Shown here one piece after another: positions 13,766 to 59,344 of a stretch of DNA of 64,000 nt. Where the stretch lies: positions 4,836,001-4,900,000 of the forward strand of contig NC_043009.1 in NCBI RefSeq assembly GCF_006345805.1. The letters are read 5' to 3'. The stretch comes from Octopus sinensis (Eukaryota). The notes under the pieces are model-generated. The model was not told the DNA's origin. It made no database searches and saw nothing but the letters and a program-made list of their open reading frames with translations. Both the position numbers and the translations under genes were made by a program. Numbering within the stretch: position 1 is the first letter of the stretch; each line of letters opens with the position of its first letter.

Positions 13766-14242
13766 TGTGTGTGTATGTATGTACGTGTATCTTCCGGTGG
13801 GATTTCGTGATAGAACCGATTGATATTTCGTACACCCGCTGTTTACCTATTTCAAATGAATATGTAATATGTCAAAGTGGAACAGTTTATGCAATAGAAC
13901 GGTGTCCTGTTAAGTGGAAAATTTGTCTGTCATTCCATTGAAATCATTAAACGAAGAATATTCAACATTTGCATAAAGAAAACACTTGGGAGTTGTGAAG
14001 ACACTGGTATGTCGTCACATTTGTTAGAGATTCACATAAGCTGACGAGAAATAACAAGCAAGTACGAAATTGTGTAAATATCTTGTGGGTGCATTGTTTT
14101 GTTGACAATGGGAGCAACCAACTGAAAGATAAAAAAACGACAGCAAATTGGTGTAAGTATGAAACACAAGGCTGCTGGAAACATAGCGTTTCTTGTTTAG
14201 CTTAATTTACGGCAAAATGAAAGAAAAAAATTTACAAAAAAC

Positions 14243-21402: not shown

Positions 21403-22568
21403 TGTTTGCCTGTATGTATGCATATGTATTCATATATGTGTGCATATACATGTGTGGGTATATGAGTACGTGTATGCCTGCTTACATACGCACATACACA
21501 TATATGGCTACATACTTTCAGCGAACATATTTTATTCCCTGTCATATTTGTAAGTACAGTAATACTGTGTCCATGAATTTTGTGGTAGAGTTATGAGTTA
21601 AGCATAAACATGTTGAGTATTTACTAGCAGAAAATGTTTAATGTTTTATTAAAAGTTTCAATTTAGAGCGAGATTTGCTATTTCCGTTCACACACAGATG
21701 GAATGATCAAATAATTCTCTCCATTACCAAAATAAAATAAAATAAAATAAAAATGTTAAAGAAATCTCTATTCGTAAAAGTACTTGTATCGTTCTCAGCT
21801 GTTCTTTTGAGAAAGCCAAATGCGATGGGAACGATGCGTTTGACGATCAGTTAAATATTCCTTGATCACAAACATTCTGCAGAAAACAAAAGAAATTCCC
21901 TGGCGAAAAGAATGTGAAAATATATCTATTCTCGAGAGAAATATTGCAATATATTTAATGAAGTATCTTATGGAATAAGATTCAGTGAGGAATATGATCG
22001 GTGGGTTTGTGTAGCGAGAATGTACGGCAAGCTCACTTCGCTGAATGAAAGCTGATGTGAGGAAAGAAGTGGGCAGAGACAGATTAACAGTCGAAGTTTC
22101 TTTGAAAAAACAGGCGTAATATTTTGTCAATCATGGAAATGTCTATTATGTTTTTTATCATACTCTGGGATGTGTGTGTATGAGTGTGCAGCAGTAAAAT
22201 TGTCCCAGATATGTCGGTTGTACTCTAATATACATATCACTTGACTTCAAAAGACAGTTCTCATTCCCTAATGCTATATAATGAATGGCTGTGTGTATCT
22301 ATATCTATATCGATATCTATCTATCTATCTATCTATATGTCTGTCTGTCTGTCTATCTATCTGCCTCCGCACAGACACACACACTCATACGTGAGTGAAT
22401 AGACAAACGAAAGAATGGACTGCGCATTAACCTTTACTTTAGAGTTGTGATTCTGAATGCTTCTCGTTGGGATACTTACAAATACTATTATTTCTATTTA
22501 GTAGATCAGTGATTGTGTGTCGTTTTGGAAATTATATAAATTTTCTAACACTAGTTTAGCAGCACCAC

Positions 22569-22882
22569 TGAAACCGGGAAACCTGCCTTTATGAGCCTGG
22601 CATGGCTCGAGAACATCTTTTCGTTGAGGCACGGGTTCGAATCTCCGACCGGGCGATGTGTGTGTTTATGAGCAAAACACCTAAGCTCCACGCAGCTCCT
22701 GTAGAAGGGAATGCCGAACTTCTGCTGACTCTTTCACCACAACTTTCTCTCACTCTTCCTGCATCTAGCAGCGCACCTGCGATGAACCCGCGTCCCATCC
22801 AGGTGGGGAGGCTATACGCCAATGAAACCGGGAAACCGGCCCATTATGAGCCAGTCATGGCTTGAGAAGGAACAAACAGCAA
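22569..22882 (+). mobile_element. SINE family D, preceded by an extra copy of its tail
   Basis: GAAACCGGGAAACC...ATGAGCC occurs at 22570 and 22825; body matches 30672-30977. Confidence 0.8.
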
Positions 22883-29254: not shown

Positions 29255-29305
29255 TCAGAGCCGCTGACGAGCCCTAATGTAAGTGCGAAATCACTGGTTA
29301 TCTGA
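29255..29305 (+). ncRNA. Type I hammerhead-like motif in a TA-flanked element (29248-29492)
   Basis: TCAGA-gccg-CTGACGA-GCCCT-aatgta-AGTGC-GAAA-TCACTGG-TTA-TCTGA. Confidence 0.5.
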
Positions 29306-29497
29306 CAATGCCCGGCGCTGAAGGACCTTGCCTCGCTTGTCAGTCATTAACATGGTGTTTAACGTGGCTATGAGCTGCTTTGACTGTTATTCCTAGCAAT
29401 ATGTACGCTGACTAATGCACTTATACGCTTTAGAGACGTATATATGTTTGCATTTCGTTTGAAAAATTACTAACAAACCACTCTTAGTATTGATATA

Positions 29498-29535
<38 letters not shown>

Positions 29536-29538
<3 letters not shown>

Positions 29539-29977
29539 ACGTATATTTGCCAACTCAATATGGCTACCCCTAAGGGTGGATGCTACTGTAGTTTTTAGCC
29601 CCAGGAGGACACACTCCTCCAGCTGGCCATCGACACACTTTCTGTGTCCTGTCAGTATTTGCAAAGGGAAGTCATCCTTCCCGTCTTCAACTTATGATAC
29701 ACACGGACTCGAGTTTCGAGGTATTGACCTCTCGTCAGCGTGTGACAATCATAGTTGTCGGCGAGAATTAGATTTCCTTCACAAATACTTATACTTTTTC
29801 CAGCGTCCACTGTCGCTGATATTGAAAAAGTGAAATCAAACAATGATAAATATCAAAGTGAGTTATATACAGTAGCGGTAACACAACGTGACGTATATTT
29901 GCCATCTCAATATGGCTACCCCTAAGGGTGGATGCTACTGTAGTTTTTAGCCCCAGGAGGACACACTCCTCCAGCTG

Positions 29978-29982
<5 letters not shown>
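29536..29982 (-). mobile_element. Retrozyme/pseudo-LTR-like element (family H3): 352-bp unit plus 95-bp terminal direct repeat
   Basis: 29536-29630 repeats almost exactly at 29888-29982; (TA)n on both sides; contains an intact HHR. Confidence 0.75.
29700..29744 (-). ncRNA. Canonical minimal type I hammerhead ribozyme
   Basis: CACACG-CTGACGA-GAGGT-caat-ACCTC-GAAA-C-TCGA-G-TC|CGTGTG. Perfect stems I and II, intact core, palindromic ACTCGAGT stem III, GUC site (cut between 29706 and 29705). Confidence 0.9.
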
Positions 29983-30018
<36 letters not shown>

Positions 30019-30020
<2 letters not shown>

Positions 30021-30101
30021 AGAGAAAGAGGGAAAGGGAGAGAAGAGGGAAAGGGAGAGAAAGAGGGAAAGGGAGAGAAAGAGGGAAAGGGAGAGAAAGA
30101 G
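30019..30101. repeat. Purine-only 18-bp minisatellite (AGAGAAAGAGGGAAAGGG)n
   Basis: About 4.5 units, read directly. Confidence 0.8.
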
Positions 30102-30112
30102 AGCGAGAGATA

Positions 30113-30575
30113 CAGGGTAATTGAAAAGTAACTCCCTATTTTAAAATACTTATAGTTTATACATTAACTCTAATTTTTAGAAAAATAAAGGAATATGTGA
30201 AGAAAGCATATACCATGGATTGTTATTTAAAATTCGATATTGGCACCAGGATTCGAAACCAGCTCCTCAAGCTGCCTGGGAACCGTTTCAACTGATTTCA
30301 TCAAGAACTCTTGTGATGGTGGAAGACAACTTCTCGTATTCGCCTTTCAAGTTCTTCCAAAGTCATTGGTTTAGTAGGGTAGACTTTCTCCTGTTACCAA
30401 CCCTGAAGCAAAATGTGAAGCAAGTTGTGAAATCAGGGTTTCTGGCCCGCCAAAAATGTGGACATGGACGAACAATTCATCAGCCACGGAAGTGGACAGC
30501 CAGCTATTCATGAACAACAATCGCAAAATGTGGAGGAGCGCCATCTTCCATAAAAATCAAATTTTCAATATACTC
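30113..30575 (-). mobile_element. Tc1/mariner transposon 3' part with TIR
   Basis: Minus strand IFMEDGAPPHFAIVV...HFWRARNPDFTTC (QDGAPPH and WPARSPDL motifs, with stops); TIR TA|CAGGGTAATTGAAAAGTAACTCCCTATTTT. Confidence 0.8.
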
Positions 30576-30585
30576 CCAAGTACTG

Positions 30586-30662
<77 letters not shown>

Positions 30663-30671
30663 TGTGTGTGT

Positions 30672-30977
30672 GTGGAGGTACATAGCCTAGTGGTTAGAGC
30701 AGGGGACACGCGGTTTCGAATCTCAGACCGGGCGATGTGAGTGTTTATGAGCGAAACACCTAAGCTCCACGCGGTTCTGGCAGAAGGTAATGGCGAAACT
30801 TCTGCTGACTCTTTCACCACAACTTTCTCTCACTCTTTCCTCCTGTATCTGGCAGCTGACCTGCGACGGACCGATGTCATGTCCAGGTGGGGAACAAATA
30901 CGCCAAGGAAACATGGAAACCAGCCCTATTAGCCAGTAGTGGCTCGAGACGGAACAAGCAACAACAACAACAACAAC
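30672..30977 (+). mobile_element. SINE family D
   Basis: GTGGAGGTACATAGCCTAGTGGTTAGAGC head; (CAA)n tail. Confidence 0.85.
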
Positions 30978-31156
30978 ATATATATATATATACATAATTC
31001 CAAGAGAGTGAAAAGTTGTGAATCCCACCAATTAAGGGATAATATCTATCCAATATGCTGCTGGTAATATATTAATACACAAGTATTTTATCATTGCATG
31101 ACAATTACATTACCGAGTGCAATAAATGGGTGAGGGTACAAAGTTATTTTACCTTT

Positions 31157-31199
31157 AGGGGATCAAGAGGTGGCGATAAATATCACCTCTTGATCCCCT
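31157..31199. repeat. Perfect 16-bp inverted repeat
   Basis: AGGGGATCAAGAGGTG-gcgataaatat-CACCTCTTGATCCCCT. Confidence 0.85.
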
Positions 31200-31272
31200 C
31201 CATTTTCTTATTGCTGTATATATATAGATATATACATATATACACGCATATATACTTGTTTGTGTGTGACTG

Positions 31273-31583
31273 TGTGAAGTCACGTGACTTAGAGAATTCG
31301 TCTCATGAGCGTAAGGTCGTAAGTCCAATTCCGGTCGACACATTGTATTCTTGAAGGCGCTTTATTTCACGTTGCTCCTGTCCATTCAGCTGGCAGAAAG
31401 GAGTAGCACTTGTATTTCAAATGACCAGCCTTGTCACATTCTGTGTTACGCTGAATTTCCCTGAGAATGTTAAGGGTACACGTGTGTATGGAATGCTCAG
31501 CTACTTGCACGTTAACTTCATAAGCAGGCTATTTCGTTCGTCGGATGGACTGGAACCCACGTCATCGTAACCGACTGAGTGTT
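31273..31583 (+). mobile_element. SINE family C
   Basis: Collinear with 15925-16238. Confidence 0.8.
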
Positions 31584-31610
31584 TCAGATCATATATATAT
31601 ATACAGAAAA

Positions 31611-32040
31611 TTAGAAATATTGCATTTCTAAATCTCTCAGAGAGACTTTTACAGTAGAAGCACGATAAAGTGATGGTTTGTCAACTTAATGTGGTAGTTC
31701 CAGGAAATCTAAGAATGAATGCTACATCTATTTAGCCCCAGGGAACATCGTTTCCAGTTGGCTACGTGTCACAAGCGTTCTGTGTCCTTACGTTTTGAAA
31801 CAGGGGAGATGATCACCTCTATCTAGTAAAACCAGCAACCGGAGAATAGTTTCAGAGTTATTGTGCTTCATCAGTTTGGAGTAGCTTGGCTTCCTTGATG
31901 TCCATGCTAATTTTGTCTTTGAAAAATCATAGAATTTCAAGTGGAATAAATTCACTGATCTACAATTTTAGAAATATTACATTTCTAAATTTCTGAGAGA
32001 CTTATACAGTAGCAGACAGATAAAGTGATGGTTTGTTGAC
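31611..32040 (-). mobile_element. Older family H3 element: ~357-bp unit with terminal repeat and decayed HHR (31839-31879)
   Basis: 31611-31685 repeats at 31968-32040; ATGCTAC..TTTAGCCCCAGG..TCCAG.TGGC..TTCTGTGTCCT shared with 29580-29650; minus strand CTGATGA...GAAAC. Confidence 0.6.
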
Positions 32041-32354
32041 AATGACAATAAGACCCCATTAATAGTGGCCTTAACTCCCACATTTTACAACTCCATGTGT
32101 TCCATGTGCTCCACTTTTCAGGAGCAAAAATCTTTGAATGGTGTTTATAAGATTTGGAGTTTGGAATCTGGGTATAAAGATAAGTAGTATGGGATAAATT
32201 TGTCATGATTAGGATTTTTGGTTGGGTGTGTAATGAGGGAAAGAACTCCCATTAAAATTCTTAATCTCCAATTTTGATGAAATTCGAATCATATATATTC
32301 CAGTTCATTAGAGAAAATATAAAAGAAAACTTTTATTTCTTAAATTTCATGTGA

Positions 32355-37515: not shown

Positions 37516-37566
37516 ACAATCCCTCTCTTTAGGCACTGAGCAATCCCTCTCTTTACTCAGTGCCTA

Positions 37567-38172
37567 AAACATCGTGCAAAGTATGTAAGTAGCGATCGTG
37601 ATACCCACCACGAAGAAATGATCAACTCAATAACGATCTGTTAAGCAACAGCTACCCCCAAAACCATACTATCCACTCCAATTATGAAGGAGAGAGAGGA
37701 TGAGGCAAAAAACTGTCCAGTCTGTCTACGATTTGTGAAAGGCCTCTTCGAAAATATACAAAAGTTATGCGGCCCATATGACATCAGGATAGTATTCAAG
37801 AGTAATACGACACTTCGCAAATATCTCCTTCGAGTAAAACCACCAATAGAAGAGAACATGACCAAAGTCTGCGTTTACTCCATTCCGTGCAGCTTTGGTA
37901 GGTTATACAAAGGTGAAACATGCCGCCCCCTCAAAATAAGGGTAGACGAACATCGCATAGCTGTAACGCGAGGAGATATTGATAAATCGGGAATAGCTGA
38001 TCATGTATGAAAAAATGGATGAAGTTAAAATAATTGACGGAGAACACCACTGGAAAATACGAAAACTAAAAGAAGCAGCACATATACTAGGACACAGCAA
38101 CCTCCTAAGCAGACCGAGTGCAGATATGAGCAGCAAATGGGAACCGGTATTAGAAAGGATAGAAAAATATTA
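37567..38172 (+). pseudogene. Penelope-like element: RT thumb plus GIY-YIG endonuclease remnant
   Basis: CVYSIPCSFGRLYKGETCRPLKIRVDEH...KSGIADHV and KIRKLKEAAHI match the PLE GIY-YIG consensus; frameshifts and stops present. Confidence 0.85.
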
Positions 38173-38194
38173 GATTTATGAGCTCTAAAATTCA

Positions 38195-38265
38195 CTCCAT
38201 AACAGTAGTTAAGAGCGCGGGCTACTAAGCCCAAGATTCCGAGTTCGATTCCAAGCACTGACCTG
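38195..38265 (+). promoter_or_regulatory. tRNA-derived segment with Pol III A/B-box-like motifs in the PLE 3' region
   Basis: GTAGTTAAGAGC-GC-GGGC-TACTAA-GCCC-AAGATTCC-GAGTTCGATTCC. Confidence 0.45.
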
Positions 38266-38442
38266 AACAACAACAGCACCAACAACAACAACACCACCAC
38301 CATCACCACCACCACCAACAACAACAACAACATCAACAACACCAACAACAACACCACCACCATCACCATAATAATAATAGTAAGAAGAATAATGATAATA
38401 ATAATAACAATAACAATAATAATAATAATAATAATTATAGTA

Positions 38443-38485
<43 letters not shown>

Positions 38486-38492
38486 TAATAAC
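38266..38492. repeat. (CAA/CAC)n-(TAA)n microsatellite
   Basis: Direct reading. Confidence 0.9.
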
Positions 38493-38540
38493 ATCGAAAA
38501 ATACCATAAGAATGAGAAGCCAGGTTCGAAATTTCCCGAA

Positions 38541-38584
38541 AACACCTGAAGAAGGCTGAAGGGTATATCAGGCGAAACGTGATG
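38541..38584 (+). ncRNA. Hammerhead motif in the PLE tail (3' strand of stem I missing in this copy)
   Basis: AACAC-CTGAAGA-A-GGCTGA-agggtata-TCAGGC-GAAAC-GT, ~370 bp downstream of the GIY-YIG remnant on the same strand. Confidence 0.6.
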
Positions 38585-38614
38585 AGGACAAATATCCGTC
38601 GAATGTAAATAATG

Positions 38615-39085
38615 TAAATAAAGCCTACGTTTATTCGATCCATTCACATATGTTATGGATTTCTCAATTACTTTCCATTTAATCACATGTGGTGTTTGGC
38701 TACCTTTCAAAGACCAGACGTGGCTAACCACTTAGTTGCTTTATTTTGTCCCTATGATAAAGGAGGATATGTGATTGGTTAAGCGATTTTTAATTTCACC
38801 TTCACATAGGTTTTCTTATTAGTTGTATTATTATTATTTAGGATTGCAGTAACCTCTGCTTGATATATAATAGATTTAATCATACACCGTTGGTCAAGTG
38901 GACAAGATGATGGTTTGCGACAGTAGCAGCTGGATAGAGATATTCTTCATATTGGTGCAGGAGCTAAACGATAATTTCACAGAACACCTATCAAATATTT
39001 TCTTGTCCCTGTGAGTTGCTGGAAAGTGTTTGTCTAGCGAAGACAGGAATCTTTTACCTATGTTAGTTTTTATATTTAGGGAAAT
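38615..39085 (-). pseudogene. Second PLE (Naiad-like): linker plus GIY-YIG remnant
   Basis: IKTNIGKRFLSSLDKHFP..KIFDRCSVKLSFSSCTNMKNI; CYCRKPSSCPLDQRCMIKSIIYQAEV; SHVWSLK...IKWKVIEKS..Y.NGSNK. Confidence 0.8.
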
Positions 39086-46869: not shown

Positions 46870-47070
46870 CAGGTTCCTTAACTTATAAACAATCGAGTGT
46901 GAGGCACTCCTCCCCCAATGGCACGTCAATCCATTCCAGGATTGTTGTCCCGTATTTCGTGCTGCGAGAAGAGGGAACAGCCTGAAAAGAAATGTTTTTA
47001 ACCCAGAAAACAGCACGCCACCCGGTCTCAGGATCGAAACTATGACCTTACAATCCACGAGAAAGCGCAT
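46870..47070 (-). mobile_element. Decayed tRNA-derived SINE (C/D-like head)
   Basis: Minus strand GTAAGGTCATAGTTTCGATCCTGAGACCGGG. Confidence 0.5.
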
Positions 47071-47189
47071 AATTGGTTACACCACGAAATATGTACGGGA
47101 GTCTATTAACACCTATAATATTCGTTTCATCCGCATCACTATCGTCGTCATCATCATCATCATCACCATTATTATTATTGTTATTATTA

Positions 47190-47368
47190 TATGTTTGACA
47201 TTTTTCAGGTAGGTGTTTAGGCCAAGTGTGGCAATCTTCTGGTTCAGAGTGGTTCTCCATGATCTCATACTTACAGACAAAGAAATTTCGCAGAGTAGGT
47301 TCTATTTTATACATTTCCAGACATTTCGTAATCCAGCTATGTGGTAGACTATCAAAAGCGTTTTTTTC
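47190..47368 (-). pseudogene. R4/Dong LINE RT fragment
   Basis: KNAFDSLPHSWITKCLEMYKI (DxxKAFDSxxHxW motif), next to (TTA)n. Confidence 0.7.
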
Positions 47369-48019
47369 TTATCCAAATTGAAGAAGTGAAACTGGTGAAA
47401 AAAGCGAGTGTGTAACTCTCGATACCAATAAATTGTTATTGTACCTTATTGTACACTGGCCACTTTTCGCTCCCTCAATCGTCCACATACTGCTTGAAGC
47501 TTATTAACGTCCAACTCTCGAATCTCCAGACGTATACATATATTTGTATGTATGGAAAAAGATGGCTAGATTGATTGAGAGCTAGATCGATAGATATGAT
47601 ATATACATGTGTGTGTATATGCGCATATATATATATATTATATATATATATATATACAGATATACTTATATTAGTATGTAAAGTTGGCTATACATAAATA
47701 CAAAGGGGAACTTGCCAGCTAGTAGCAGCCATTTGTTTCTTATTCAATGCCCCACGTTTCAGAACGTTGCATTTTTGTGATGGTGTATCACATCCACCCA
47801 TTCCAATTAAATAATTGCCAGTAACATAATATATTTAACATGGGCATTTTTTTCATTACCATAAAAATAACTTTCTGAATCAGTTATTAGAGAATAAAAA
47901 AAATAGACATTAATAAGAATACAGGAAAAATAGTCCGAGCTAGACATGTTCACGACTGTCATGTATTATTGTATCATATATATGTGCCGTAGACAAAGAT
48001 ATAAAAGAAATTGTTGTTG

Positions 48020-48050
<31 letters not shown>

Positions 48051-48077
48051 CATTATTATTATTATTATTATTATTAC

Positions 48078-48267
48078 TAAGGGGCGTGATTGCAGAATTG
48101 TGATCTCGCCGGGCGAGATGCTTAGCGGCTTTTCGTCCGTCCTAGGTCGACTTTACCTTTTCATTTTCTCGGGGTCGATAAATTAAGTACCAGTTGCGTA
48201 CTGGTGTCGATCACATCCACTAAACCTCTCACCCAAAATTTCGGCCCTTGTGCCTAGTTTAGAAAAG

Positions 48268-48268
<1 letters not shown>
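48078..48268 (+). mobile_element. SINE family B
   Basis: GCCGGGCGAGATGCTTAGCGG..GGGGTCGATAAATTAAGTACCAG. Confidence 0.7.
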
Positions 48269-48304
<36 letters not shown>

Positions 48305-48321
48305 TATTATTATTATTATTG

Positions 48322-48739
48322 ACTGAGGGAGAAGTGACACTGGGGTAAAATATACGAAGCCCAGTATACCCATCCTGACCACCTATATGATAAGGGTACA
48401 TAAGGCACATGCATCACAACCATATGTGCTTGAAACGGTGATCTTATATCAATATAAACAGCAGGTGGGTCCCAGTTAGAATTTTGTTCACATCGAGTAA
48501 TCCATCCAACACAAAAGTTCCCCGAATAAGGCTTGTTTAAGGATGTTGAACGAAACACTCACGTTTCGAAATGTGAATTACCCAAATCCTAAAGAATTTC
48601 TCTCATCACATGGTTATGATGCTCCTGCACTACTTCTGCACATATCGTTAGGCACTAAGGGACATGATCAGCTGGTTAAGGTCAAACAACTGAGAAGCAA
48701 ATCTGTTGTATTTGCTGTAGCCCATCTTTTATACCAAGA

Positions 48740-48740
<1 letters not shown>
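48322..48740. mobile_element. Unclassified ~420-bp segment between (TTA)n tracts
   Basis: Sharp (TTA)n borders next to the Dong 3' end; no convincing ORF. Confidence 0.35.
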
Positions 48741-48789
<49 letters not shown>

Positions 48790-48834
48790 TATTATTATTA
48801 TTATTATTTTATTATTACTATTATTATTATTATT

Positions 48835-49043
48835 CAGTAGTTTTATTTTTATAGCGTGCTTTCACTTCACTACCGAGCGCAGCTCTGTGTGCCTTGGGTA
48901 TGTGCTGTGATTTGTTGTGATGCTCTGATGGTTATTGTACGGAAAGTGTTCTGCGTAGGATGTGTGCAGTGCCTAGTAGTGCAATTTTCTGTATGTTATA
49001 AGTGTTTGTAAGTCCTGGTGTTTTTGTTATGTATTTGTCTGAA

Positions 49044-49127
<84 letters not shown>

Positions 49128-49560
49128 GCACATGTTTATACCATTTGTCAGTTTTTATGTTGTAGTGTTGGCATATTGTCCAGTAGATATAACTACTCAC
49201 TCGGTCGTGCCTGCGTATATATTCAGATTTGACAAGGACCGGACAGCCAGAGATGATGTGGTCAACTGTCTCATTCCACTCGTTGCACATTCTGCACTTG
49301 GTGTTTGGGTCTATTTTGATTATTTTACTTCTATAGTCGTTCGTAGTCAGGTATTGGTCTTTGGCCACGAGAGAATCAGTCCCTCCGTTTCAACTCTTAG
49401 TCTAGAGCTGTTAATCCATTGTTGGCTTTCACTTAGGATTAGTTCTTCCCTGTCAGGCCTTGCAAGGTATTAGCAATCGACTGATTTTCTCACCGTTTCT
49501 TCTTTAAATATGTTTTGTAATTCTGTTTTCATGTTACTTTTTTGCCTCTGCCCATTTCTG
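48835..49560 (-). mobile_element. R4/Dong LINE 3' end
   Basis: CRMCNEWNETVDHIISGC (CCHC) and YIRRHDRV; C-terminus QKIALLGTAHILRRTL, then a short 3' UTR ending in (TAA)n. Confidence 0.85.
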
Positions 49561-51779: not shown

Positions 51780-52250
51780 ACTCTTCTGAGAATGATTTAG
51801 AATGTTATACGAATTCATTTGTGGCTATTTGTATTAGTTTTCCTTGTTTCTGAAGTTGGTATTTCTGTAGTCATATGGTGGTTATTGTGTAATAGTTTTC
51901 TAGCTAATACAAATCTATATTTAAGAGATGGGGAATTATGTACATTATTTACATTATTTACATTATTTACATTTGTCGGATATCCGTCAAACGTAAATAA
52001 TGTAAATAATGTTTTCTAGCTGTATAAGGCATCTACCACATTCGATACGTTATATATATATATATATATATAACATTTGGTTGTCAGATTTTGGGTGGTG
52101 CATCCTAAATCCTGTCATTATTTTTCTTGTTTTCCTGTCTATTTTGATTAGTTTATTTAGAGTCCAGTTAAGAATATTATAACTAGTGTTGATACCTATT
52201 ATTTTGTTTTTTGCATTGAGCTCTGTATTCAGTATTAGTCTACGTAAAGT
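51780..52250 (-). pseudogene. R4/Dong LINE post-RT fragment
   Basis: LILNTELNAKNKIIGINT..LNWT..IDRKTRKIMTGFRMHHPKSD..LY. Confidence 0.8.
51951..52012. repeat. 62-bp near-perfect palindrome built from the PLE terminal sequence
   Basis: ACATTATTTACATTATTTACATTTGTCGGAT|ATCCGTCAAACGTAAATAATGTAAATAATGT; the right arm matches ATATCCGTCGAATGTAAATAATGTAAATAA at ~38592-38621. Confidence 0.75.
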
Positions 52251-52865
52251 CACGCTGTATTCTTCAAAAAAGAGAAAGACATTAATTCCTTGGGATACTA
52301 TGTTGGAAACACGAGTATGACACATAAGGCTGACACGTACTTGAATAATCGGCAATCAACGGTGGAGGCGGAGTACGGCTAAAACGCAAACATATATTAT
52401 ATTAATTAAATAAGAATTTAGCATATTTTGATAATGTGCCATCATTAACATAAATTATAATCACAAATGTTTACGTTAGTCTGAGGAAATTAACAAACAA
52501 CGATGGGTCCCGTCTTCTGAAGTTCAATGTATACATCAGGTTATTTTTTTTTTTACATTTGTTTTGCTTTCCTGCTTGTAGATATGTCACTTCGAATAAC
52601 TGCTTAATAGTTTTAAGACAGGCATGAATGCAATGTATATAATTCCGGCTCTATTACATTAACTACAGATAATTTGGATGTTGACACACATAGGCAAACA
52701 ATAAAATCGATGTGCTGTGACAAAATACTAACACACACATATTCAAAGAAACGCAATCACGCACGCGCACAAACAACTATCGTGCAAACAAGGATTATAT
52801 TTATATGCATGTGTATATACACATATTTATATATACATATACGTACATACATACATATATATATA

Positions 52866-56955: not shown

Positions 56956-57329
56956 ACTCAACTACCAACAAACAACACACAATGCAAAAACAAATACAAC
57001 AGAAAACTCAAACCAATCCCCATAACAGCACATACTCATACAATTTAAATCTCCCACCCCAACAAAATTATGCATTACAAACGTGCAACAAATGATGCAG
57101 TAGAAAGCTGCTTGAAACTATCAGATGTCGAAAAATTATAGTGTTGATGATGTTGGTAATGAATGTTACCTTACCTCAGTTTATGAGAGACAGAAGTTTC
57201 CGAAGAAACTCTTGTTGTAACAGCAAAAATGAAGCTGGACATTTAAGGGAAAGCCTATCGCTCGACAGTAGTTCAGTAAATATGTAAATTGACCACAGCT
57301 GTGATCCTAATACAGCATCAGAAGATAAT

Positions 57330-58965
57330 AGAGTAAGTGGGAGTGAGTGGTCCAGAGAAGAAAACAGGATAGTGATGCAGTGCTTCTTAGAAAATGAACC
57401 TAAAAGAAGGAGCTATAGGAAACGGATGTTAAAATTTTGGTTAGAGAAGGGGATGTTTAAAGTGACTGAACAGAGATTAGTTGATCAAGCTGACGCTATT
57501 AGGAGGAGAAAGTGGATGAGAGAACTGGAAGTAGAAGGGATCATAAGAGAACTGGAAAAGAAAGACAAACAACATAAGAGATACAGCTCAAACCAAAGAA
57601 GAATCTAAAGGAAAACATAATAATAGCTCTACCAATAATGAACGGAGCAACGACTTGAATGATTTAAGTGAGGAAGATCAGAAGATTTTAGATGAGTTGC
57701 AGAAAGTAATGAGTATAGAAGCAAGGAAAAGATTGACAGCATTAAAATGCACCAACAGAAGGAAGCTGCTAGAAATGACGAGAGAAGTAGATTCTGTTAT
57801 CGGTAGGATAGATACAAAAAATATAGGAGACACTGACTTATTTATATATGTAGGAGGGGTAGTAGTCACTAGATGATTAGGTATCTCATAGGGAAAGATT
57901 AAAAATGAGCAAATGTGGAAAAGGAGACTAGAAAATAAAGTGAAGACTTTCAGGCAAAATCTGAGTAGAATAGAAATCTGGAAACTGAACAAATTAGAAA
58001 ATACAAGATGAAAATCTTCCCCTCAGAAAAGATACTTAGTCAAAGAGAAAGGATTTGGGACAGTAATAGAAGAGCGTGTGATAGCAGTAGCAGGTAAGCT
58101 GTCCAGATATCAGAAAAGAATATATCAGTATAGATTATTTGAGACAGACTAGAGATTTTATAACCAAATAAATAGTGGAGAACGAAGAACTGAAGATGTG
58201 AAGCCTATTGCAGAAGAAACTAGAAAGGTTTGGAGTAACATTTGGGATAACCAGTCAATCATAATCGAGATGTAGTATGGTTAAAGTAAGTGAAGAAGTA
58301 GTGAATGAGAAGCAACCAGATCTAAGATTAGTGCATTAATGAGTATAGTGTTGGGAAAAATGCCGAATTGGAGGGTCCAGTACCATATATTGTTCATGGG
58401 TACTGGTTAAAGAAATTTAATAGTTTATATGAGAGGCCAAAGGAACAACTTCAGGATTGCCTTAATGGATGCATAGAGGGAGGAAAATACACCTTATGAA
58501 AGACACAACAAGGCTAATACAGCTAGCAAGTATGGTCCAATCGCTTGCTTACCATTAGTTTAGAGGCTGTAACATTAACAGGAATGCTTTCAGAAAGTAT
58601 TTACAATCACCTTGAGAACCAGAATTTATTGCCAGAAGAGCAGATAAGGTTGTAGGAAGACGGCTAGAGGCACGCATGATCTATTATGCACAGACAAAGC
58701 TGTTCTAACTAAAGGAAAAACTAGAAAGAAAAATCAACACTAGCATGGTTAGATTATAAGACAGCCTATGACATGATCCCACACTCATGGATAAGTGAGT
58801 GTTTAAGTATATTCAGTATAGCAGACAAAATAAGAAAATTAATTAACTTCAGCATGGAAATATGGAAAGGTGACACACTCTTAGGGAAAGTTAATATCAA
58901 GAAAGGAATTTTCCAAGGGGATTCGTTATCCCCTTTAATATTTATCTTATGTTTTATCCCACCCA
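57330..58965 (+). pseudogene. R4/Dong LINE ORF remnant (N-terminus plus RT)
   Basis: WSREENRIVMQCF..SYRKRML..TEQRLVDQ; LAWLDYKTAYDMIPHSWI; KGIFQGDSLSPLIF; many frameshifts. Confidence 0.9.
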
Positions 58966-59344
58966 CGTCTAGTTTAGTGAGATAATGACTCACTCCAATT
59001 TTCTCCTTGTGCTTACATTTTTTTCTTACTTTATCCATGTTTACCCGGTTGTCGCTTCCCAGCAAAAACCAAGGAAGACAATTTGCAGCAGAACTTATTA
59101 AATAGCAGGAAAATAGCTTGAATATATATTGTTGTTGGTAAACGAAAAAAAACAACAACAATTGGACGTTTTTCGTTGCCCAGTTTAGCCAAGAAAGTAT
59201 TCGTTTGCTGACAAGAAAGAGTTAGGACTTTCATACATTGGAAATTTCGCTATCAATAGCGACTACTAAAAGAAGAAAAAAATGTAATGCAATGTATCAA
59301 CCAAAAAGTTCTCAGAGCGTGACAAAGCAAGCATGCTGTAGTAT

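Follow-up and report, generated by a model that had tools for sequence, protein, structure and literature searches.

A putative non-LTR retrozyme in an Octopus sinensis genomic window, with copies slightly longer than one unit

Two dispersed elements, designated A and B, were identified in the window, which is the whole 64,000-nucleotide stretch of Octopus sinensis DNA analysed here. We consider it probable that both are copies of a non-autonomous non-LTR retrozyme, copied into (TA)n sequence by the reverse transcriptase (RT) of a Penelope-like element (PLE) from a template that was longer than one unit. Each element consists of a little more than one non-coding unit with one hammerhead motif (Table 1), and the two are homologous, begin and end at different points of the unit and represent a large repeat family.

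Table 1. Elements, repeats and ribozyme motifs in the window
Feature	Position	Strand	Remarks
Element A	29536..29982	minus (RNA sense)	1.27 copies of a 352-bp non-coding unit
A duplicated segment, left copy	29536..29630		95 bp; recurs downstream at a spacing of 352
A duplicated segment, right copy	29888..29982		95 bp; two family-minority letters common to the left copy
(TA)n microsatellite, left flank of A	29493..29535		insertion target
(TA)n microsatellite, right flank of A	29981..30017		2-base ambiguity at the boundary
A hammerhead, canonical type I, intact	29700..29744	minus	Rfam Hammerhead_1 (RF00163), 32.2 bits, E 3.3e-5
Element B	left end 31604-31611, right end 32036-32041	minus	~1.2 copies of a diverged 355-357-bp unit
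B duplicated segment, left copy	31611..31681
B duplicated segment, right copy	31968..32036
Short (TA)n left of B	31591..31603
B hammerhead, decayed	31836..31880	minus	CUC at the site between 31842 and 31841
Candidate third A/B-family fragment	22429..22574	plus (opposite to A and B)	older, without a ribozyme; nhmmer E 5.8e-4
Penelope/Poseidon-like remnant	37555-38640	plus	5'-truncated; broken GIY-YIG-like frame, interrupted by microsatellites

Anatomy of the two elements and their ribozymes

The first-pass annotation described A as a 352-bp unit followed by a 95-bp repeat of its start, and this description is borne out by the two 95-bp copies, which are identical at 94 of 95 positions (the sole mismatch is at 29553). 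In the RNA sense, the 5' end at 29982 precedes the predicted cut by 277 nt, and the 3' end at 29536 follows it by 170 nt. With 352 bp and a GC content of 43.2%, the A unit lies inside the range given for retrozymes (150-450 bp and less than 50% GC), as does the B unit. The longest ATG frames span 38 codons in A and 35 codons in B, and neither of the two frames tested has a Pfam match. Consensus patterns for polymerase III boxes have no match in A. The output of Tandem Repeats Finder for the window includes neither A nor B, and there is no tandem array of the unit within the window.

Element B had been described as a diverged homolog of A with a period of ~357 and another permutation point, and all three parts of that description stand. 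Its duplicated segment repeats at a spacing of 357 (31611-31643 and 31968-32000) and then of 355 (31637-31681 and 31992-32036), with 87% identity between the copies over 71 columns; the unit taken at 357 bp has a GC content of 37.8%. A collinear alignment of A 29536-29904 with B 31670-32041 is identical in 239 of 347 columns (69%) and scores 194, compared with at most 109.5 across 300 dinucleotide shuffles. When projected onto A, the left end of B falls at ~29829 (A's own is 29888) and the right end at 29904 (A's own is 29982). The corresponding ends are therefore ~59 and ~78 nt apart, the duplicated segments of A and B overlap by only ~17 nt on the unit, and the phase difference between the two elements is genuine. 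Read as RNA, B has about 195-200 nt before the cut and 231-238 nt after it. No (TA)n is present at the right end of B, and no target-site duplication is visible there or at the left end.

Judged by their 69% identity, A and B are separate subfamilies, and they are the only two copies in this analysis with both ends in view. The fragment at 22429-22574 is probably a third and older member of the family, as indicated by its score against B (112.5, with a shuffle maximum of 78); its score against A is 64, below the shuffle maximum of 83.

The hammerhead of A has an intact core with all 13 of 13 pairs formed. Its proximal helix I (6 bp) extends into a long bulged stem at about 29654-29790, helix II has 5 bp, and helix III has 2 bp with a tetraloop. 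The match falls just below the RF00163 gathering score of 34, and Rfam returned 0 matches in the whole window at the gathering threshold. A descriptor scan recovered the GUC site that had been named at the outset, with cleavage predicted at 29706/29705. The B hammerhead retains the core letters and 4 of the 13 pairs, and both the Rfam scan and the descriptor scan missed it. In two of the four surviving pairs, which belong to helix II, both partners differ from those of A; covariation between the two ribozymes, a comparison of two sequences only, is not above that of shuffles (119/500). The proposal of one minus-strand hammerhead per unit is consequently upheld in full for A, and for B only in the form of a decayed remnant. 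B is probably an old, dead copy.

Folded as a circle, the A unit reaches -113.8 kcal/mol (z -5.35 from 40 shuffles), and a fold that contains the ribozyme is 5.9 kcal/mol costlier. Given that the plus strand folds about equally well (z -5.83, versus -5.35 on minus), the strand was called from the ribozyme. The fold of the B unit resembles that of shuffled sequence (z -0.02).

Several other features of the window were noted. A loose scan for CUGANGA...GAAA core-like strings found examples at 14041 (+), 17424 (-), 30483 (-) and 58190 (+), none of which passed the stem filter; they are probably chance occurrences or decayed motifs. Immediately to the left of A, an element designated C (29256-29487, plus strand) spans 232 bp and is flanked within (TA)n by direct repeats of 11 bp, TATTGATATAT, which are likely a target-site duplication. 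Element C occurs once in the window and has a fold z of -0.76; at its start lies a decayed motif resembling a hammerhead, with its core at 29264 and GCC instead of GUC. Homology of C to A was rejected because the scores, 51 and 54.5, stay below the 72.5 that shuffles reach, and C probably represents a second ribozyme-bearing family. By eye, a long inverted repeat at 31146-31200 forms a hairpin between AT-rich flanks and is a candidate MITE- or Helitron-like end, and a SINE-like repeat has two copies (30675-30960 and 22566-22880), with other SINE-like repeats across the window. Fragments of non-LTR retrotransposon frames, which may be R4/Dong-like, are located at 47051-49389, 52053-52355 and 57288-59221; the segment 49030-49389 gives a weak zf-RVT match (E 5.8e-5) that is under the curated cut-off.

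Abundance and contig evidence

Of 24 rows from a search of sequencing runs, the 20 that were listed represent 11 studies and nine organism labels; all are contigs, and none is recorded as RNA. Four runs were compared with A at 85% likeness, two guessed to be DNA (X2 and X4) and two guessed to be RNA (X5 and X19). Matching contigs number 3,682 in X2 and 2,834 in X4, and the A/B family is therefore large and present in high copy. There are 45 such contigs in X5 and 13 in X19, which, with RNA status being a guess, are no evidence of expression, strand or circles. Scans with exact patterns gave 0 matches in metagenome contigs, viral contigs and prokaryote genomes, as expected for an animal repeat.

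The contigs give no sign of fixed ends at the boundaries of A. Depth, which is summed per contig and is not a copy number, shows no step across the boundary between 29887 and 29888 (480k, 520k and 408k in X2; 497k, 585k and 555k in X4), and past 29630 it increases rather than decreases. Fixed ends would halve or abolish the depth on one side of each boundary. The near-empty first depth bins would be accounted for by contigs that were assigned to A's other 95-bp copy. Diverged contigs span both boundaries of A (X5 record 29, with 9 differences, and X5 record 26, with 27), and the listed results include no place at which many contigs end. The 22 loose ends shown, out of a set with 321 more, comprise 21 that are diverged unit by eye and one that is (TA)n, and none is a junction to an RT or GIY-YIG frame. 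The (TA)n end belongs to an RNA-guessed contig of X5 and lies exactly at the left boundary of A; it represents either the A locus itself or a preferred or fixed start. The first-pass annotation had named fixed ends attached to a coding PLE body, together with an absence of circular RNA, as the observation that would count against a retrozyme; there is no coding body at A or B, and the depth at the boundaries of A gives no sign of a fixed end.

Across the family, contigs cover the junctions, but neither a dimer nor a multimer of the unit was seen, and none of the listed contigs carries two ribozymes. In X2 and X4 alike, the proportion of contigs continuing into unlike sequence is 0, although short contigs could hide a rare coding partner. 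Four joints, and four more with intervening letters, are single low-depth contigs without a 352-nt go-back; these data are uninformative because contigs that cross the junction map straight through a reference of 1.27 units.

Near the ribozyme (29686-29730), between one third and more than one half of the depth is lost, from 958k to 798k and 376k in X2 and from 806k to 657k and 466k in X4, and a drop occurs in X5 as well. This could reflect divergence among subfamilies or the presence of copies with an end at the site of self-cleavage. The variant analysis covered 40 of 64 rows; 26 variants were kept on the basis of reaching at least 5% in X2 or X4 and 14 were dropped. Six of the 26 common variants would, taken as single changes, break a predicted pair, compared with 10.5 expected at random, which is a weak signal (P about 0.03, with phase unknown), and two of the six are rescued by a variant at the partner position. 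The free position 7 is the only core position in those 40 rows that varies at 5% or more in the DNA-guessed runs. In one X5 contig the cut position is occupied by an A, which by the NUH rule leaves the triplet cleavable.

Both 95-bp copies of A carry the same two family-minority letters (29595/29947 and 29628/29980), which indicates a single template lineage for the two. The same outcome is expected from 1.27 passes round a circle and from a multimer with uniform units.

Template, enzyme and alternative origins

Neither end of A or B coincides with the predicted cut, and both elements exceed one unit in length. We therefore conclude that the ribozyme site of the template was unbroken, as in a circle or an uncleaved multimer and unlike in a linear monomer after cleavage; to a circle and to an uncleaved linear multimer we assign about even weight. 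Given that excision of a monomer needs two ribozymes (PMC7229834), A and B are products rather than sources. The insertion into (TA)n and the partial tandem structure are PLE traits (PMC8557442), and they point to a PLE as the supplier of the enzyme.

We infer a source multimer, its cleavage, circularisation and the identity of the enzyme, and arrange them as follows. A source locus elsewhere, with at least two units, would be transcribed in the direction of the present minus strand. To judge from the intact motif of A, the hammerhead could cut the multimer into ~352-nt monomers, which a host ligase may close. A PLE reverse transcriptase-endonuclease would nick (TA)n DNA and begin copying within the unit, and the anatomy of the elements shows that copying passed an uncut or re-joined ribozyme site and continued beyond one unit, to 1.27 units in A and ~1.2 in B. 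The resulting loci, with one ribozyme each, cannot release a monomer by themselves. We propose that the family is a non-coding derivative or parasite of PLEs.

Regarding the original proposal of a retrozyme, the portion that stands comprises the non-coding type I unit of retrozyme size, the large family and the read-through past one unit. The claim that A and B themselves yield a ~355-nt circle does not stand, as each has a single ribozyme where two are required and that of B is broken. Nor do the different start points favour a circle, as had been argued from them. The PLE enzyme of Anolis accepts unprocessed RNA and initiates reverse transcription on it at two internal positions (PMC11167929), 5' truncation shifts the other end, and the A and B subfamilies could each have fixed starts. 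That copies of 1.x units begin at freely permuted points round a 352-nt circle, with paired passes identical and arrays rare, is a conjecture that we advance only tentatively.

Co-occurrence with PLEs is a further criterion for retrozymes, and a PLE-like remnant is present in the same window. The PLE-like sequence proper spans 37555-38161, and the best of three matches for the fragment 37645-38007 is Octopus sinensis LOC118763458 (69%). We presume the remnant to be a PLE from RT and GIY-YIG-like motifs in P0002, and scans of Pfam, PDB and NCBIfam gave the PLE-like proteins no name. Downstream lies a minimal hammerhead-like motif (~38546-38580) that is unrelated to A. In O. vulgaris, PLEs make up 6.83% of the genome (PMC13282606).

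An alternative that we regard as unlikely, and nonetheless as the most serious, is that A and B are the 5'-truncated ends of a coding PLE, in which case the 352-bp ribozyme repeat would belong to its pseudo-LTR or 3' region and the variable ends would arise from internal starts and truncation. Most PLE copies are partial tandems that have lost their 5' part, favour microsatellites and may carry a tail of 30-40 bp (PMC8557442), and PLE reverse transcription uses two internal starts without a need for ribozyme cleavage (PMC11167929). In Xenopus, 24 of 57 retrozyme families match known elements at their termini, nearly all of them PLEs (bioRxiv 10.64898/2026.07.22.740005), and the left junction of A is repeated in one contig. 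However, there is no reading frame at A or B, the three PLE-like proteins have no match nearby, the unit is unlike the 3' end of the PLE remnant described above (score 48, with a shuffle maximum of 62.5), and no share of the X2 and X4 contigs runs into unlike sequence. Moreover, PLE ribozymes are mostly minimal and lack helix III (PMC7761336 and PMC6155905), whereas that of A is canonical with a 2-bp helix III. Because the same preprint derives retrozymes from PLE pseudo-LTRs, this alternative and the preferred reading of a retrozyme copied by a PLE enzyme are barely separable.

A second alternative places the phases at the level of DNA, with pieces of a tandem satellite spread by recombination, deletion or extrachromosomal reinsertion and the ribozyme carried as a passenger. 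Any piece excised from an array would be a permuted partial tandem, and unequal crossover has been invoked for array growth (bioRxiv 10.64898/2026.07.22.740005). This explanation also gains from the failure to read a target-site duplication at A and B; retrozymes may have one longer than 4 bp, which the (TA)n flanks of A would mask. We nevertheless judge it improbable: A sits cleanly within (TA)n, the window lacks any array from which a piece could come, and members of the family retain the ribozyme core, with the weak tendency of common variants to spare predicted RNA pairs pointing the same way.

Finally, that A is a small LTR element (a TRIM or plant-type retrozyme) with 93-bp terminal repeats, as the TG starts and CA ends of 29537-29629 and 29889-29981 would allow, was rejected as very improbable, given that B duplicates a different part of the unit (which largely refutes it), that the ribozyme is of type I and lies between the repeats whereas plant-type elements have a type III hammerhead inside fixed LTRs, that the repeat boundary shows no twofold rise in depth, and that the repeats of A have no adjoining primer-binding site or polypurine tract by eye and no readable target duplication of 4-5 bp.

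Relation to known systems and significance

On the DNA features tested, A and B appear to belong with the metazoan non-LTR retrozymes of Cervera and de la Pena 2020 (PMC7229834), of which the closest are the 350-390-bp units of Mytilus galloprovincialis and the 350-bp unit of axolotl. As in those systems, A combines a canonical type I hammerhead, whose helix III has 2 bp and a tetraloop, with a non-coding unit of ~350 nt that has less than 50% GC, a self-paired fold and many copies, in a host that is probably a mollusc like the mussel. The likeness to the mussel units is one of features and size. A cDNA longer than one unit is a prediction of the retrozyme model (PMC7761336), and A and B fit it. 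The metazoan retrozymes described so far occur as dimers to multimers, and circles have been demonstrated for them, in contrast to the DNA copies of 1.2-1.3 units with a single ribozyme that are found here in (TA)n.

Dispersed solo 'monomers' that co-occur with PLEs have likewise been reported by Li, Clavereau and Pollet 2026 (bioRxiv 10.64898/2026.07.22.740005), who read them as offspring of active tandems. Their 'active' class needs at least two complete ribozymes in tandem, whereas A and B have one each. In that work, only one of nine predicted Xenopus dimers cleaved in vitro, the host groups that it lists include no mollusc, and the sections consulted contain no analysis of where on the unit the monomers begin and end.

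PLEs of the Penelope/Poseidon type, including Anolis PAc, share with A and B the partial tandem, a ribozyme within the repeat, AT-rich or microsatellite targets and variable ends (PMC8557442 and PMC11167929). Unlike them, A has no RT-endonuclease frame, its ribozyme is canonical instead of minimal, and the 352 bp make up the whole unit. The Sm-alpha repeat of Schistosoma and newt satellite 2 also consist of a short repeat with a type I hammerhead and a looped extension of helix I (PMC6155905); they come from other hosts and are likened to A by description only.

A search of titles and the beginnings of abstracts, mostly of openly accessible papers, yielded no report of a cephalopod retrozyme. 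The words 'ribozyme' and 'hammerhead' are likewise absent from the O. vulgaris repeat paper and its supplement as searched (PMC13282606). Two loci alone are unsurprising, because the retrozyme class is known from corals, mussels and amphibians.

The return of retrozymes to DNA is currently a hypothesis, in which the cited papers propose, but do not show, the enzyme, probably that of a PLE, and the template, be it a circle or an uncleaved multimer (PMC7229834, PMC7761336 and bioRxiv 10.64898/2026.07.22.740005). Many dispersed copies of slightly more than one unit make the question of the template testable by the counting of their ends. If those ends proved to be freely permuted, the octopus genome would preserve extensive fossil evidence of a PLE reverse transcriptase that rolled round circular RNA, documenting a step of the retrozyme cycle that the cited papers propose and do not show, and the family would be the first cephalopod retrozyme described.
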